Origin: a bacterium
Lineage (GTDB): Bacteria > Patescibacteriota > Minisyncoccia > Minisyncoccales > RBG-13-42-11
Assembly (NCBI GenBank): GCA_030646565.1
Contig: JAUSLA010000015.1
Span: 1-51,468 of the forward strand
DNA: 51,468 nt
Direction: 5' to 3'
The position numbers and the translations under genes are program-made. The stretch's first letter is position 1, and each line of letters opens with the position of its first letter. Positions 383 to 24,179 of the stretch are shown here, in pieces. Below the pieces are notes generated by a model. That model did no database searches. It worked only from the letters and a program-made list of their open reading frames with translations, and was not told the DNA's origin.

Positions 383-1054
383 ATGGAAAAAAAAGAACAA
401 ACAAAAAAAGGCGAAATCGTGATATATGAAGCGTCTAAAGGCGAGGCGCGGGTTGAAGTACACTTGGAAAAAGAAACGGTCTGGCTGGATGCACATCAAA
501 TAGCACTTGTTTTCGGCGTGAATCGGCCGGCTATCGTTAAACATATCAATAATATTTATAGAACCGGAGAGCTGAATAAAAGTTCTACCTGTTCCATTTT
601 GGAACAGGTTGCCGCCGATGGAAAAGTGCGACAGATGAATATTTATAATTTAGATATGATTATATCTGTTGGATACAGGATTAATTCCGGACGCGCCACC
701 CAATTCGCGAGCTTTCTTGAAAATTGTGAGGATATAATTTCTTACGCTAAAAACTATTTTGCGGTGCATTTCAAGATTGATTATAAAAATGCGAGCGGAA
801 GCATTTCAGATTACTACCCGGATTATATTGTGAAAGTATCGCCACAAGAATACTATGTCGTTGAAATCAAAGGGCGTGAGGATATTAACGATGTTGAGAA
901 AATTAAACGGCTTGCTCAATGGTGCGTGGACGTAAACGCGAACCAAAAGAACGTCGTTTACAAAATGCTTTACATTAGACAGGAAGAATGGGAAGCCCAA
1001 CAACAGAAACCTCGCAATTTTCAAGAAGTTGTTCGGAATTGGATTAAAAAATAA
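383..1054 (+). pseudogene. Chimeric ORF: RhuM-family N-terminal domain fused to a type III restriction Res-like C-terminal nuclease fragment (probable gene remnant)
   Basis: The N-terminal ~100 aa (IVIYEASKGEARVEV...WLDAHQIALVFGV...ISVGYRINSGRATQF) matches the RhuM-family pattern and stops abruptly after ATQF, near nt 706. The C-terminal part (DYYPDYIVKV...YYVVEIKGRED) looks like the PD-(D/E)xK tail of type III Res subunits. I placed the start at ATG 383; the track ORF begins at TTG 311. Confidence 0.5.
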
Positions 1055-3390: not shown

Positions 3391-4095
3391 TTAAGACCCG
3401 TTCTTAAATTTTAGCATTCTGAAAAATTCGGCATATCTATATCCCTTCTTTTTTCCTGCAATTTTAGACCATGCCCTTACTTTATTTTCAATTGCTTTTA
3501 AATCAGCTATCTGGCTTGAATGTTGAGATAAGGCCTCTATTTTCTTATCAATAGTTTGAGTAATATCAATAAATTTATTCGGTTTTTCGGTGGCGAAAAA
3601 CCAAATTTCTTTTATTTGGTGCGGCTGATATCCTTGTTTTAAAAGTTCGGGAAAAAAAGAGGCGGAGCCGGCGGCTGGATATATTGAATCAAAAACCGCT
3701 TCCGCTGTTTGGCGATGATCCCGATGAAAACGATGAGGATTATCAAAGCTATGGTTAGCGGGATCAAAACTCAAAATTATCTCCGGTTTTACTTTTCTGA
3801 TTATCTGAACTATTTTTTTTCTCAGAAATTGAGTGTTTTCAATTTCTCCGTCTTTCAATCCCAAAAAGAAGACATTATTTACCCCCAAGACATTGGCCGC
3901 TCTTTTTTGTTCTGTTTGCCTAATTTTTGCTAATTTTTTTGAAGAAAATTTAACTTTATGGCTGCCCTTTGACCCATCACTAATAATCAAATAAAATACC
4001 TCGTTATTTTCTTGAGCCATCTTTGAAATTGTGCCGGCGCAGGTGAAATCTAAATCATCGGGATGGGCTGAAATTGCTAAAAATTTATTTTTCAT
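3391..4095 (-). CDS. PIG-L/LmbE family deacetylase
   Basis: The protein has FLAISAHPDDLDF and a HRDH motif. I chose ATG 4095 (MKNKFLAIS); the track start at 4119 would overlap iscU by 35 nt. Confidence 0.7.
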   Translation of the reverse strand: MKNKFLAISAHPDDLDFTCAGTISKMAQENNEVFYLIISDGSKGSHKVKFSSKKLAKIRQTEQKRAANVLGVNNVFFLGLKDGEIENTQFLRKKIVQIIRKVKPEIILSFDPANHSFDNPHRFHRDHRQTAEAVFDSIYPAAGSASFFPELLKQGYQPHQIKEIWFFATEKPNKFIDITQTIDKKIEALSQHSSQIADLKAIENKVRAWSKIAGKKKGYRYAEFFRMLKFKNGS

Positions 4096-6495: not shown

Positions 6496-7065
6496 CTAAA
6501 TTTCGTACTCTTTTATTCCCCCGGGAGGTATTTCAAAATTCACAATGTCCTCGTCTGATATTTTTTCAATATATTTTGCCAACGCCCTTAAGCTGTTGTG
6601 ACTGGCGACAACTAAAATATTCTTTCCCTGTTTCAAATCTTTTTCTATGTATTCTCTGAAAAACGGCACCACCCTGTTATAAACATCTTCCAAGCTTTCT
6701 CCCTTTGGGGGAGCTATATCCCAGCTTCTCCGCCATAGCCTTACTTGTTCCTCTCCGTATTTTTCTTTCATCTCGTCTTTATTAAGACCCTGTAATTCCC
6801 CATAATTTCTCTCATCTAAAGCCTTATTAATAATGATCGGCAGATCTTTTTTATTAAGATTTTCTAAAATTAAGCGAACTGTTTCTTTATTTCTGATTAA
6901 GGGCGAAGTATAAACTTTATCAATTTCAAAACCAGCCAGTTTTCCGGCAACTTCTTTTGCGCTTTCAATCCCCTCTTTACTCAAGGGAACATCAGTCCAG
7001 CCGGTGAATCGATTCTCTTTATTCCACTGCGACTCAAGATGCCTTAATAAAATTAATCTCGCCAT
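6496..7065 (-). CDS. gpmA: Phosphoglycerate mutase, 2,3-BPG-dependent type (short form)
   Basis: The protein starts LILLRHLESQWNKENRFTGWTDVPLS, and the gene is adjacent to eno. Confidence 0.75.
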   Translation of the reverse strand: MARLILLRHLESQWNKENRFTGWTDVPLSKEGIESAKEVAGKLAGFEIDKVYTSPLIRNKETVRLILENLNKKDLPIIINKALDERNYGELQGLNKDEMKEKYGEEQVRLWRRSWDIAPPKGESLEDVYNRVVPFFREYIEKDLKQGKNILVVASHNSLRALAKYIEKISDEDIVNFEIPPGGIKEYEI

Positions 7066-12675: not shown

Positions 12676-12906
12676 CTATTTAAAAAACCCATTGATTTCA
12701 AAAATCTTATTTTGTTGCCTTGACCCCTTAACTAATTTTAATTTTCCTGCCGGGATATTCAGACGAGAAGATAGAATATTTATTACTGCCCTGTTTGCCC
12801 TCCCCTCTTTGGGTTTTTCTCTCACATAAACATTGAAGGAATCGCTGCCCCTCTTAATGATTTTATTTTCTTTTGAATTTGGAAAAACTTTAATTTTAAT
12901 AAACAT
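12676..12906 (-). CDS. DUF167 (YggU-like) protein
   Basis: IKVFPNSKENKI...EKPKEGRANRAVINILS...KLVKGSRQQNKIFEI follows the DUF167 pattern. Confidence 0.7.
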   Translation of the reverse strand: MFIKIKVFPNSKENKIIKRGSDSFNVYVREKPKEGRANRAVINILSSRLNIPAGKLKLVKGSRQQNKIFEINGFFK

Positions 12907-13973
12907 TATGCATTATGTTTTATTTCAATAACATCGCCGTCCTGAATCACGTATTCCTTGCCCTCTGTACGGATTAATCCTTTTTCCCGGGCTTGAGAGA
13001 ATCCGCCTTTATCCAAAAGGTCTTTCCAGTTTATTACTTCAGCCTTGATAAAATGTTTTTCGAAATCGCTGTGTATTACTCCTCCTGCCTGCGGAGCCAT
13101 TAATCCTTTTTTAATTGTCCACGCTCTTGTTTCATCTGGCCCTGTGGTGAAAAAAGTGATGAGACCCAACAATTCGTATGCCTTTTTTATCAAAACATCC
13201 AATTCTGATTCCGCGGGCAAACCCAAAGACAATCTTTCCTCTTTACCAAAAACTGCTGCTTCAAGTTCCGTTAAAACGTCTATTATTAAAAACGGCCAAA
13301 GATTTTTTTGAAATTCTTCCGTTATATTTTTGGGAACTTCTTCATTGCTACCGTTTAATAAATACAATCTTGGCTTTATTGTCAGGAGTTGGTATTGGCG
13401 AATGATTTTTAATTCTTCTTCGCTGAAATTCTGCTCGCTCAAAATTTTACCAGTTTCCAAAAATTCTTTAACTTTTTTAAGGATTTCTAATTCTTTTAAG
13501 GCCTCTTTTTTGCCGGTCTTTGCATCTCCCTCCAAGGAGCTTGTCCTCTTTTCTGTTGTTTCCAAATCCTTTAGTATCAATTCCATGTCCAAAATTTCTT
13601 TATCAAATATAGGATTTATTTCCGGCTGAACGTTGACTATGTCATCCTTTGAAAACGCGCGCAAAACATATAAAATCGCGTCCGTCTCTCTTATGTTGGC
13701 TAAAAATTTATTCCCAAGACCTTCTCCCTTGCTGGCCCCCTTTACCAATCCCGCAATATCCAAAAATTCAATAGTTGTGTATATTTTTTTGGCTGATTTT
13801 GTCAATTCGGCAAGCTTGTCTACTCTTTCGTCTAAAACCGCAACAACGCCCACATTGGGGTCAATGGTGCAAAAAGGGTAGTTGGCCGTATCAACTTGTT
13901 TTTTGGTTATTGTTTGGAAAAGCGTTGATTTGCCCACATTAGGCAGACCCACTATTCCTATTGAAAGCGCCAT
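12906..13973 (-). CDS. ychF: Ribosome-binding ATPase YchF
   Basis: The protein has GIVGLPNVGKST, NYPFCTIDPNVG and the C-terminal TGS-like DGDVIEIKHN. Confidence 0.9.
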   Translation of the reverse strand: MALSIGIVGLPNVGKSTLFQTITKKQVDTANYPFCTIDPNVGVVAVLDERVDKLAELTKSAKKIYTTIEFLDIAGLVKGASKGEGLGNKFLANIRETDAILYVLRAFSKDDIVNVQPEINPIFDKEILDMELILKDLETTEKRTSSLEGDAKTGKKEALKELEILKKVKEFLETGKILSEQNFSEEELKIIRQYQLLTIKPRLYLLNGSNEEVPKNITEEFQKNLWPFLIIDVLTELEAAVFGKEERLSLGLPAESELDVLIKKAYELLGLITFFTTGPDETRAWTIKKGLMAPQAGGVIHSDFEKHFIKAEVINWKDLLDKGGFSQAREKGLIRTEGKEYVIQDGDVIEIKHNA

Positions 13974-14105
13974 ATTTTATTTATTATAAATATTTTAAAA
14001 ACTCTTTTGGGCTTATTTTAATTTCTCTCAAAATTTGCCTTAAAAGACCGCGATAGATATCTTCTCTACCACAATAACCCTATTTGAAGAAAAAATAAAG
14101 TTTAA

Positions 14106-14299
14106 AAAGAAAAAGGCCCCTGCGACCACCTAAAGGAAGGTGAGATTAGCAAGGGCACATAGCGCTCAAATATCTCCTGGGACAGGAGCGCCTTTACCAT
14201 CCCAGAATATCCCTGTTAGTCCCTTCGTGACCGGGAATCGTCTTTCGAAGGACCTAGCGTACCGCCAGTCAGAAGTTCGCTAGGCAACTTTCCGACTGT
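14106..14299 (-). ncRNA. Unassigned structured small RNA (~190 nt) with its own promoter and intrinsic terminator
   Basis: The minus-strand transcript is predicted from a TTGACA-16 nt-TGATATACT promoter. It ends at the hairpin CCCTTGC..CACCT-TCCTTT-AGGTG..GCAGGGG followed by CCTTTTTCTTTTT. Internal structure includes a possible pseudoknot (CAGTC/GACTG crossing CCTAGCG/CGCTAGG) and the stem GTCCTTCG/CGAAGGGAC. I could not assign an RNA family. Confidence 0.45.
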
Positions 14300-14305
14300 A
14301 TAAAT

Positions 14306-14333
14306 AGTATATCATATCCAATTAAGTTGTCAA
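14306..14333 (-). promoter_or_regulatory. Sigma70-type promoter for the 14.1-14.3 kb RNA
   Basis: Read on the minus strand, the -35 box TTGACA is at 14333-14328 and the extended -10 TGA-TATACT has its hexamer at 14311-14306. The spacer is 16 nt. Confidence 0.5.
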
Positions 14334-14475
14334 GAAGCGATTTTGAGAACATTATTTTATTAAAAAATCGCTAGACAGGTGGGTTTTTTGTAAAAAACTT
14401 ATAACTGTTCTGGATTTTTTAAAAACAGATGCGTATGATATAATAATTAGTAATAGCTTATTATTTTAAAAAAGG

Positions 14476-14718
14476 ATGGGAAAAATAAATCTAAAAAAAT
14501 TAATCAGTCGGCTTCAAGACGCCCTAATATACGAAGAAAGGTCTTTGATTAGCTCTCAACACGATTGCTATAAAAACCTGCCGGGAAATTTAAGCCAAAA
14601 AGAAGTGGAAGAAGCAAGAGAAATGCTGGACACCCTTTTAATCCAATCCTTGAACCATGCCAATGTTTTGGGTGATTTAATTATAAAATACTATGAAAAA
14701 TCTTTTAAAGAGCTTTGA
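14476..14718 (+). CDS. Hypothetical helical protein (possible detached N-terminal part of the downstream sensor kinase)
   Basis: This 80-aa helical ORF overlaps the next ORF by 26 nt in a different frame. Confidence 0.4.
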   Translation: MGKINLKKLISRLQDALIYEERSLISSQHDCYKNLPGNLSQKEVEEAREMLDTLLIQSLNHANVLGDLIIKYYEKSFKEL

Positions 14719-15736
14719 GGTTCTGCTTCCCTTAGAAACAGAAGCAAGCCAGATTTACTCTGCAATACTGGATGAGTTTCCTGGGGTTGATGAACTTGCT
14801 GAAAAAATCAGCCACATAAGAAACGAGGAAATTTACCACATACAAATAGCTAATAGCCTTATTAAAATAGGGAAAAAAGCAGAAAAAAGAAAAACAGGAA
14901 TCATTATTCCTTCCAAGAATACGCGGGACTTTCTGCAGAATGATTTTAATTTTAAGGGCTATTTATTAAATACGTTAACTCGGCTCCTTGATGCAAAAAT
15001 TCAGTCATTTATGTTGATTAATTTGCTGAATAAAAAAGATGTAAGGTATCAAAGGGCAAGGCAAACTCGCGATAATATAACAAAAATCATTATTCATAAT
15101 CTTAAAAGCCCTTTAACAATAACTAAATGGATCTCTGACTTGCTGCTGGAAGGGAAAAAAGAAAAATTAACTGGCGAGCAGAAAGAAATGGTAGAAAAAA
15201 TTAAAACTGCCAACAGTTCAATGTTTTCGCTTGTGAAAGATGTTTTAGAAATGAACCAAGCCGAAGAAAAGAAAAAATTGAAAAAAGAAAAAATTAACAC
15301 AACGAAGATTTTGGAAGAAATTATAAAAGAATCAAACAATCTAATTAAAATTACAGGCCAAAAAATTAATTTTCAACCGCCAAAAAAAGATATAATAGTT
15401 TTGAGTAACGCCGAAGTTTTAAAAAAAGTTCTCTCTGCCATTTTGACTAATGCTATCTCCTACGGAAAAAAGGGAGGAAAAATTTTCGTTAAGACAGAAA
15501 AAGAAAAAAACGGAAAAGTTTTAATTTCGGTGGCTGATAATGGAATTGGAATACCGCAAAAAGAACAAAAAGATATTTTTAAAAAGCTTTTCAGGGCATC
15601 TAATGCAAAAGTTCTTTATTCTGAAGGAAGCGGTCTTGGGCTTTATATCGCTAAGGAATTAGTTAAAAATATAGGCGGAAAAATCTGGTTTAAAAGCCAA
15701 GAAGGCAAAGGAAGCGAATTCTTTATACTCATTTAA
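14693..15736 (+). CDS. Sensor histidine kinase (HisKA + HATPase_c), apparently cytoplasmic
   Basis: The H-box is IIHNLKSPLT, the N-box is LTNAISYG, and the G-boxes are DNGIGIP and GSGLGLYIAKELV. I saw no transmembrane segment and no adjacent response regulator. Confidence 0.75.
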   Translation: MKNLLKSFEVLLPLETEASQIYSAILDEFPGVDELAEKISHIRNEEIYHIQIANSLIKIGKKAEKRKTGIIIPSKNTRDFLQNDFNFKGYLLNTLTRLLDAKIQSFMLINLLNKKDVRYQRARQTRDNITKIIIHNLKSPLTITKWISDLLLEGKKEKLTGEQKEMVEKIKTANSSMFSLVKDVLEMNQAEEKKKLKKEKINTTKILEEIIKESNNLIKITGQKINFQPPKKDIIVLSNAEVLKKVLSAILTNAISYGKKGGKIFVKTEKEKNGKVLISVADNGIGIPQKEQKDIFKKLFRASNAKVLYSEGSGLGLYIAKELVKNIGGKIWFKSQEGKGSEFFILI

Positions 15737-16000: not shown

Positions 16001-16294
16001 TTAATATTCTAATTTTATCCCAAGTTTTTCGGCAACCTGATGAAACCACTTTTCGTGGCGATCAACTTTGTGAGCTAACATCACCATTTCCTGAAAATAA
16101 GTATCGGCCTTCTTGGCGTAAGCATCAATGGAAACCATAAGATTATTAAAATCCTCTTTTGTAGAAAGATTCTTTACAGCTTTCTCTAAATCTTCTCTAG
16201 TGGCAAATACATCAAACAGCTTATTAAATCTTTCGTCAATTTTCTCAAACTTCTCATCTAAATATTGAATCAATTCGCTAAAATCTTCTTTCAT
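16001..16294 (-). CDS. Hypothetical coiled-coil protein
   Basis: This 97-aa charged helical ORF has its own terminator. I recognised no family. Confidence 0.5.
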   Translation of the reverse strand: MKEDFSELIQYLDEKFEKIDERFNKLFDVFATREDLEKAVKNLSTKEDFNNLMVSIDAYAKKADTYFQEMVMLAHKVDRHEKWFHQVAEKLGIKLEY

Positions 16295-23816: not shown

Positions 23817-23828
23817 GATTTTCGATTG

Positions 23829-24179
23829 TGGAGATGGCGGGATTTGGACCCGCGTCTGAAGAGTTTGGCTAAAATAATTCTACAAGCTTAGTTTGGTTTA
23901 ATAAAAAACATAGAATTAAAACCAGACAAAACTTCTATATCTTTAATCCATCCATTTTCAGCGGTTTTTCTGGATTAAGAAAAGCCGCTTATCTCGCTGA
24001 TTTTTGACACTCATTTCCGCATAGCGAGAATCATCGGAACTGAATGGTCCAGCTACTTAAGCGTAAGCTAGGACGGGTTGTTTGAATAAGTTGGCACTTA
24101 TCCGATTGTTAGTTTTTACAAGAGCTAACAACTTGGCTTGCGTATTTCAGTTCATTCTTCATCGAAGCCATTCATCCCC
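23829..24179 (-). ncRNA. ssrA: tmRNA (SsrA)
   Basis: On the minus strand the 5' end GGGGATGAATGGCTTCGA pairs with the 3' end CATCTCC-A, giving the G3:U Ala-identity pair. The T-arm is GCGGG-TCCAAAT-CCCGC. The tag frame after GTAAAAACT...GGATAAGT reads GCC AAC TTA TTC AAA CAA CCC GTC CTA GCT TAC GCT TAA (ANLFKQPVLAYA). The gene lies next to smpB. Confidence 0.85.

Follow-up and report, generated by a model that had tools for sequence, protein, structure and literature searches.

An Uncatalogued Family of Orphan Structured RNA in Patescibacteria With a Predicted Fold of Three Successive Pseudoknots

Introduction

What does a 502-nucleotide (nt) gap between coding regions encode in a bacterium whose lineage keeps almost no spare DNA? 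The question is raised by contig JAUSLA010000015.1 of assembly GCA_030646565.1 (GTDB lineage Patescibacteriota; Minisyncoccia; Minisyncoccales; RBG-13-42-11), a stretch of 51,468 nt that is referred to herein as the window, in which the gap lies between ychF (12906-13973, minus strand) and a small open reading frame (ORF) and kinase pair that begin at 14476 on the plus strand. Patescibacteria have tiny genomes and represent a large share of bacterial diversity, and to our knowledge very few of their non-coding RNAs (ncRNAs) have been described. A sequence-only reading of the window had placed in this gap an unassigned structured RNA with its own promoter and terminator, and that proposal is supported by conservation, by covariation and by the absence of a match in Rfam 15. 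We propose that positions 14299-14106 of the minus strand represent an independent gene for a ncRNA of ~194 nt with its own near-consensus sigma-70 promoter and intrinsic terminator, and we regard the existence of the gene and of its family as nearly certain. The family is an uncatalogued one of orphan structured bacterial ncRNA, and its conserved fold is predicted to consist of three successive pseudoknots, formed by stem A with helix B, by P2 and P2a with a UCCC:GGGA pairing, and by P3 with P4.

The Locus and Its Transcription Signals

The signals that delimit the predicted gene are as follows.

14328-14333, minus strand: -35 box TTGACA, from a promoter scan and reading of the sequence
14306-14314, minus strand: extended -10 element TGATATACT (TG-n-TATACT), with a 16-nt spacer to the -35 box
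14106-14299, minus strand: predicted RNA of ~194 nt, its ends set from the promoter and the terminator
14104-14156, minus strand: intrinsic terminator, a 41-nt interrupted hairpin (14156-14116) followed by CUUUUUCUUUUU (14115-14104)

The promoter described in the sequence-only reading, with TTGACA, a 16-nt spacer and TGA-TATACT, is present where it had been placed, scores 11/12 plus the TG, and is the top promoter-like site within 13500-15000. Transcription would start near 14299, which is 7 nt past the -10 element, and would end inside the U-tract, giving an RNA body of ~50% G+C over ~194 nt. The claimed enrichment in G+C over some 190 nt is evident, with a fraction of 0.49-0.53 over 14100-14300 vs 0.20-0.30 in both flanks. 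The terminal hairpin and U-tract could also be read at 14156-14104, with the strands GCCCUUGC and GCAGGGGC and an inner stem CACCU/AGGUG. This hairpin is missing from the output of a simple terminator scan, probably because of the interruption in the stem and because the stretch that it encloses is longer than the 8-nt loop limit, and the call draws on reading of the sequence together with the equivalent 3' ends of relatives.

As had been suggested, no ORF fits the region, where the only ORFs are of 32 and 47 amino acids and neither is conserved. The single-sequence fold (-71.2 kcal/mol) is modestly better than that of dinucleotide shuffles (z = -2.44), and the locus scores 115.9 bits over 14155-14298 with our covariance model R3. 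It is single copy in the 770-kb assembly, since a blastn-short search of 14095-14345 against all 74 contigs returned only the locus itself, T-runs and chance words of 12-17 nt. This rules out a copy of one of the hairpin-repeat (RPE/MITE-like) families of the genome, and no flanking repeats were seen at the locus in the same search.

Conservation and Covariation of the Predicted Fold

The sequence-only reading had called for a homology search with covariation analysis, and this yielded ~37 distinct relatives, from Patescibacteria genomes and from groundwater and sediment metagenomes, in which promoter, core and helices are retained and many compensatory changes are seen. This number was obtained after the removal of duplicates and of two pattern matches (L072 and L078) that have neither a promoter nor the P2 helix and are apparent chance matches. 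A TTGACA-like -35 box and a TG-extended -10 element at the expected distance are found in 31 of the 37 members (score of at least 9/12). The 5' end of L057, one of the remaining six, is cut by the contig end, and for the other five no -35 variant scanned gave a call, with no promoter at all visible in L079 and L082. The TTGACA(A) box is invariant in eight order-level members and a TATGnTAnnAT-like extended -10 element is kept in relatives, whose 3' ends have a G+C-rich hairpin and U-tract in the corresponding position. Nearly all complete copies retain this promoter and have a terminator.

The strands of the predicted fold, in RNA order, are listed below.

14286-14298, minus strand: stem A, 5' strand, CAGUCGGAAAGUU with one bulged A, pairs with 14266-14277
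14278-14284, minus strand: helix B, 5' strand, CCUAGCG, located in the stem A loop, pairs with 14253-14259 (pseudoknot 1)
14266-14277, minus strand: stem A, 3' strand, AACUUCUGACUG, pairs with 14286-14298
14253-14259, minus strand: helix B, 3' strand, CGCUAGG, directly abutting P2
14246-14251, minus strand: P2, 5' strand, CCUUCG, pairs with 14222-14227
14228-14245, minus strand: invariant core loop, AAAGACGAUUCCCGGUCA, holding P2a and the 5' strand of PK2
14242-14240 with 14231-14229, minus strand: P2a, GAC with GUC, inside the core loop
14236-14233, minus strand: PK2, 5' strand, UCCC, inside the core loop, pairs with GGGA at 14213-14210 (pseudoknot 2)
14222-14227, minus strand: P2, 3' strand, CGAAGG, pairs with 14246-14251
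14210-14216, minus strand: invariant ACAGGGA, whose GGGA (14213-14210) is paired by RNAalifold with the UCCC of the core loop
14200-14207, minus strand: P3, 5' strand, UUCUGGGA, pairs with 14175-14182
14186-14192, minus strand: P4, 5' strand, GGCGCUC, within the loop of P3, pairs with 14161-14167 (pseudoknot 3)
14175-14182, minus strand: P3, 3' strand, UCCCAGGA, pairs with 14200-14207
14161-14167, minus strand: P4, 3' strand, GAGCGCU, pairs with 14186-14192

Covariation was assessed in a covariance-model-based alignment of 40 sequences in which standard pairs were counted. Overall, 87.9% of the 1266 cells are paired, compared with 31-53% after a shift of the partners by 1-3 columns. Changes at both positions are seen in 27 of the 34 pairs, and in 500 column shuffles no observed measure was equalled. 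Stem A (helices 1 and 2) is 81-82% paired and all eight of its modelled pairs vary on both sides. Its 8-nt loop contains CCUAGC(G), which forms helix B with the more 3' (C)GCUAGG. Helix B (helix 3) is 87.3% paired with five of six pairs covarying, in columns that were not fitted to it, and its variants in relatives include CCAAC:GUUGG, CCGGC:GCCGG, UCUAC:GUAGA, CCUAUC:GAUAGG and GCAGC:GCUGC. The 5' pseudoknot that had been thought possible, CAGUC/GACUG (part of stem A) interleaved with CCUAGCG/CGCUAGG (helix B), is borne out in that both pairings are present and both covary.

The central domain contains the essentially invariant core. P2 (helices 4 and 5) is 93.5% and 80.3% paired and all seven of its pairs covary, and a P2 helix of 6-9 base pairs is possible at the same anchored site in every member examined, with differing sequences, although it is weak in L053, L074 and L096. 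The 18-nt loop that it closes, AAAGACGNUUCCCGGUCN, is invariant or nearly so, as is the core AAAGACGNUUCCCGGUC...ACAGGGA in the 40 aligned sequences. PK2 (helix 7) is 100% paired; one of its changes is compensatory and two are one-sided. The sole compensatory changes for P2a and PK2 are found in L067 (A-U to G-C) and L068 (U-A to C-G), respectively. An extended PK2, in which the GU of GGUC would also pair with the AC of ACAGGGA, is disfavoured, as the change of GAC:GUC to GGC:GCC in L067 keeps P2a and breaks the extension.

The pairings in the 3' half, CUGGGA/UCCCAG (P3) and GGCGCUC/GAGCGC (P4), had been read as mutually exclusive. Both are present and both covary, but they cross without overlapping and would form an H-type pseudoknot, so the notion of exclusive alternatives does not hold. 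P3 is 74.3% paired vs 43-58% when slid, in an alignment that was not fitted to it, and P4 (helix 8) is 81.9% paired with five of six pairs covarying (variants include GUGCUC:GAGCAC, GUGUCC:GGACAC, GUGUUC:GAACAC, GAUCC:GGAUC and GGCACU:AGUGCC). The P4 3' strand lies 7-10 nt past P3, the intervening nucleotides being mostly A-rich, and the P3/P4 pseudoknot scores within the top 5% of its own dinucleotide shuffles in 25 of the 37 members. No conserved small ORF follows the Shine-Dalgarno-like AGGAG in the P3 3' strand, as starts and lengths differ between relatives or are absent. P3/P4 is absent from L084 (267-375) and L090 (5263-5376), in which the terminator comes almost directly after ACAGGGAUA. 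These two are natural minimal versions of the RNA, and because they lack P3/P4 the 5' and central domains can be viewed as its conserved heart.

Comparison With Catalogued RNAs

The sequence-only reading had found no convincing match to SRP RNA (signal recognition particle RNA), 6S RNA, RNase P RNA or several riboswitch classes, and a search of Rfam 15 with cmscan agrees, as it gave no match at the locus. The only match in the window at the gathering threshold is a transfer-messenger RNA (tmRNA), and with E up to 10 the region 13950-14500 gave only noise of 11-18 bits (the best being 18 bits at E ~9). Nothing overlaps the RNA in 35 other members, 19 of which were searched at E up to 1 and 16 at the gathering threshold. 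For raiA, OLE, ROOL, GOLLD, LOOT and the riboswitch and ribozyme classes in Rfam 15, the locus is below any credible score, and targeted full-text literature searches found no published description of this RNA family.

One family member, L075, has a neighbor of a known type: an orphan ncRNA, LOOT RNA (RF03000, 75 bits), lies ~400 nt downstream of it (610-725, plus strand). A link between the two families was considered and discarded, as LOOT RNA was seen beside L075 only and the literature on the LOOT motif added nothing.

Might the gene be a known housekeeping RNA in disguise, namely SRP RNA, RNase P RNA or tmRNA? We regard the chance of this as negligible. The slot seemed open in that SRP RNA and 6S RNA are both undetected in the lineage, and SRP RNA was the most attractive candidate since none is detectable in the order: the models RF00169 and RF01854 had no match in any of 26 genomes (our own and 25 relatives; the controls were positive), and region 13950-14500 had no SRP match at E up to 10. 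However, the protein partners of SRP RNA are missing as well. The SRP54-type GTPase domain PF00448 (Ffh, FtsY) gave only P-loop scraps of ~20 bits in our genome and 20 relatives, with controls found in 14 of 14, and the DTAGR motif is in no ORF of our genome. The missing Ffh and FtsY, together with the rarity of the RNA, rule out SRP RNA, and a presence in only ~1-3% of genomes misfits a housekeeping role in general. The absence of Ffh/FtsY and SRP RNA from our genome and 20-25 relatives is consistent with the loss of ffh and ffs that has been published for Parcubacteria (PMC4508563).

The other housekeeping candidates were rejected on direct grounds. RNase P RNA is encoded on another contig (C57:14969-15401, 98 bits). 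The tmRNA is an ordinary one-piece molecule encoded elsewhere in the window (23826-24179, minus strand, 132.7 bits), with the ARAGORN tag peptide ANLFKQPVLAYA. The 6S RNA model RF00013 has no match at the locus, in our genome or in the 25 relatives, and the predicted fold of three local pseudoknots and a separate terminator hairpin is not an end-paired rod with a central bubble.

Distribution and Genomic Context

The RNA family is restricted, in the collections searched, to Patescibacteria, and within them it is both rare (~1-3% of genomes) and scattered over different classes. Among 60 relatives searched with a BLAST-type method, only G048 had a true homologue, and that copy carries a TTGACA promoter and a terminator of its own along with compensatory changes. 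With a sequence-only model, 301 genomes of the order yielded eight real members (2.7%), a model built on 15 sequences detected four carriers among 401 genomes sampled from the phylum (~1%), and in the family of our organism one genome of 26 carries the RNA. The weak covariance model matches in G008, G211, G216 and in that family are not members, as they lack the P2 core, which the matches in the family skip entirely. The core search pattern AAAGACG-N(0,1)-TTCCCGGTC-N(6,25)-ACAGGGA matched 12 loci among 185,579 species genomes, for which the taxon-bearing titles are all of Patescibacteria and two are titled 'bacterium', and 31 metagenome contigs; it had no match in 2.9 million viral contigs. 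The taxa among the 12 loci are Saccharibacteria, Kerfeldbacteria (two diverged copies), Nealsonbacteria, Niyogibacteria and Paceibacteria, and core identity between copies in different classes, Saccharibacteria, Kerfeldbacteria and Paceibacteria among them, is 75-90%. This combination of rarity and scatter suggests an accessory function that is often lost, horizontally transferred, or both.

Some of the copies deserve separate mention. The two diverged copies in one Kerfeldbacteria metagenome-assembled genome (MAG), L053 (PFMD01000028.1) and L055 (PFMD01000011.1), are at different loci; in L053, helix B contains a mismatch and P2 is weaker. In MAG DBS2-1.bin105, L057 (contig start) and L059 (contig end) both break off within the RNA gene; they share an overlap of ~150 nt that differs slightly between them, and they probably represent one locus split by strain variation. 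Several further members are at contig ends.

Is the RNA a leader of ychF, the gene that follows it in the window? Flanking genes are unrelated between members, and in two of them, L054 (where it is recG) and L055, the downstream gene is convergent. The differing neighbors and the two convergent genes lead us to view the RNA as a stand-alone gene rather than as a ychF leader. That candidate is also rejected by six ychF orthologues (~78% identity) from the family of our organism, each of which has a different upstream gene and no such RNA. The different upstream gene at each of the six is also the reason why no 'empty site' comparison is possible. In L057 and L083 the next gene is hrcA, which has its own promoter and a CIRCE-like operator past the terminator of the RNA. 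In L073 (~3888-4060) and L079 (RNA core 6510-6544, in RNA orientation) the RNA gene lies between rpsJ (S10) and rplC (L3), and in these metagenome contigs the site is inside an otherwise contiguous fusA-tuf-rpsJ-rplC-rplD ribosomal cluster. The neighbors are ordinary housekeeping genes, for example typA, ychF, rpsJ/rplC, tsf, rpsT, recA and dnaK, and several members adjoin tRNA genes. Genes for stable RNAs are often found next to tRNA genes.

A different conserved stretch was seen in two relatives, L110 and L111, at ~100-200 nt upstream of ychF, after a small zinc-ribbon ORF. It is apparently non-coding (…gcgaccttgaaactctaagccgct…ctaagctacttcgacttatcgtctg…) and may be another RNA element.

Proposed Role and Alternatives

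We propose, with about equal confidence for and against, that the product is a trans-acting, compact folded RNA particle, the invariant pseudoknot core of which binds a protein or a small ligand. The RNA would be transcribed from its own sigma-70 promoter, ended by its own intrinsic terminator, and would act in trans as a stable particle. The invariant central pseudoknot would be the binding site for the protein partner or small ligand and the two covarying outer pseudoknots would serve as a scaffold, of which the 3' pseudoknot appears to be dispensable in two members (L084 and L090). There would be no regulation of ychF in cis.

Several points weigh against this proposal. The expression, the transcript ends and the abundance of the RNA are all deduced from sequence. 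No partner protein is evident among the neighbors, where the sole recurrent family is that of translational GTPases, at four loci. A 97-amino-acid coiled-coil protein (MKEDFSELIQYLDEKF..., 16001-16294 of the window, minus strand), which is single copy in its genome and has a 44%-identical homologue 350 nt upstream of the RNA in L079, was considered as a partner and rejected, as it was present in only 2 of the 11 genomes that carry the RNA. The next gene is co-oriented and within 50-300 nt in most loci, and an invariant pseudoknot core closely followed by a terminator also resembles a transcriptional riboswitch. As for the fold, stem A, P2 and P4 were the helices to which the covariance-model alignment was fitted, P2a and PK2 hardly vary and have one compensatory change each in their support, and covariation does not separate pairing within one molecule from pairing between two copies.

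A riboswitch or attenuator, in which P2/PK2 would be an aptamer for a general signal that sets termination vs read-through into the next gene, is in our view improbable. It would account for a compact H-type pseudoknot with invariant unpaired nucleotides ahead of an intrinsic terminator that directly abuts P4 in many members, and the near-invariance of AAAGACGNUUCCCGGUC and ACAGGGA across the 40 aligned sequences is of the kind seen in aptamers. There is also a possible alternative pairing of the GGG of ACAGGGA with the CCC after P4 at the foot of the terminator, found by RNAalifold in one 8-sequence alignment. The next genes, co-oriented in most loci, include ychF in our genome and elsewhere rplC, hrcA-grpE-dnaK, a thiC-like gene and hppA; however, these share no function or family. 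In L054 and L055 the downstream gene is convergent, hrcA carries its own promoter and operator past the terminator, and a spacer of ~130 nt of AT-rich sequence separates the terminator from the start of ychF. In addition, the spacing between P4 and the terminator varies, with extra hairpins or spacers in our own, the G076-type and the G048-type members, so that no conserved switch geometry is apparent. The distribution raises another alternative, an accessory RNA of mobile or defence-type function that is spread horizontally and has its partner encoded elsewhere, and this we consider distinctly improbable. The very patchy occurrence (1 of 26 genomes in the family, 2.7% of the order and ~1% of the phylum sample), the 75-90% identity of the core across classes, the two diverged copies in one genome (L053 and L055) and the many copies on short contigs or near contig ends are all what would be expected of such an element, but the viral contigs gave no match, no integrase, transposase, reverse transcriptase or defence gene recurs beside the RNA among the neighbors of the members, the neighbors are ordinary housekeeping genes, and no flanking repeats were seen at our locus.

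The shape of the RNA could also be taken as that of a ribozyme, self-cleaving or otherwise catalytic. Small ribozymes typically combine nested or tandem pseudoknots with a few invariant nucleotides that are unpaired, and the patchy distribution resembles that of the self-cleaving classes. Yet there is no match to a Rfam 15 ribozyme family at the locus or in 35 relatives, no conserved cleavage-site context is readable in the alignment and there is no association with mobile elements, which makes a ribozyme very unlikely. A base-pairing or sponge-type small RNA (sRNA), or a 6S RNA analogue that binds RNA polymerase, is if anything harder still to credit. The gene stands alone, would give an RNA in the sRNA size range and has a strong promoter and terminator, and the conserved stretches ACAGGGA and CAGGAGA contain GGA. 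Those GGA motifs are within helices and not in loops, however, and three covarying pseudoknots with an invariant tertiary core exceed what an sRNA needs for seed pairing. With regard to 6S RNA, the 5' and 3' ends form no rod with a central bubble, and RF00013 has no match.

Going beyond the trans-acting particle, the invariant core might be a new aptamer or catalytic core, and the RNA a class of ligand-sensing or ribozyme RNA specific to the Candidate Phyla Radiation (CPR) that has so far gone unrecognized. We offer this as a speculative, rather unlikely possibility. If it were true, the RNA would be either a free-standing sensor or a general read-through switch that precedes growth and stress genes (ychF, the rplC operon and hrcA-dnaK).

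Significance and Comparison With Known Systems

An RNA of ~190 nt with three covarying pseudoknots and an invariant core that is kept across classes is the type of object that has previously turned out to be a riboswitch, a ribozyme or a component of a ribonucleoprotein. The ~37 sequences, the consensus fold and the search pattern together represent a defined family that could enter Rfam, which would end the annotation of its loci as empty intergenic DNA. Its weight is for now limited by rarity and by the absence of a functional clue, and interest would be high if the core is a new aptamer or catalyst.

With tmRNA, which contains the pseudoknots PK1-PK4, the predicted RNA shares the presence of several tandem H-type pseudoknots in one small stable RNA. 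Unlike tmRNA, it has neither a tRNA-like domain nor a tag reading frame, and the genome has its own tmRNA. With the H-type pseudoknot aptamers of the SAM-II/SAM-V, preQ1-II, guanidine-III and fluoride riboswitches it shares a central domain predicted to be a compact hairpin-loop pseudoknot, with invariant loop nucleotides and an A-rich strand that could line a groove, and a terminator comes next in many members. The RNA differs from these aptamers in that it has no conserved downstream gene, two convergent neighbors, no model match and two extra flanking pseudoknots.

The closest likeness is to the orphan stand-alone structured ncRNAs, such as the raiA motif RNA, that Weinberg et al. (in 2017) and later work reportedly found by comparative genomics. 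Our family has no sequence or structure match to them in Rfam 15, is found in Patescibacteria and is much rarer within its lineage (~1-3% of genomes). Like the raiA-type orphan ncRNAs, however, it appears to be separately transcribed, is ~200 nt in length, is restricted to one lineage, has no conserved cis-regulated gene and no function assigned at discovery, and combines predicted pseudoknots with many invariant nucleotides and covarying helices.

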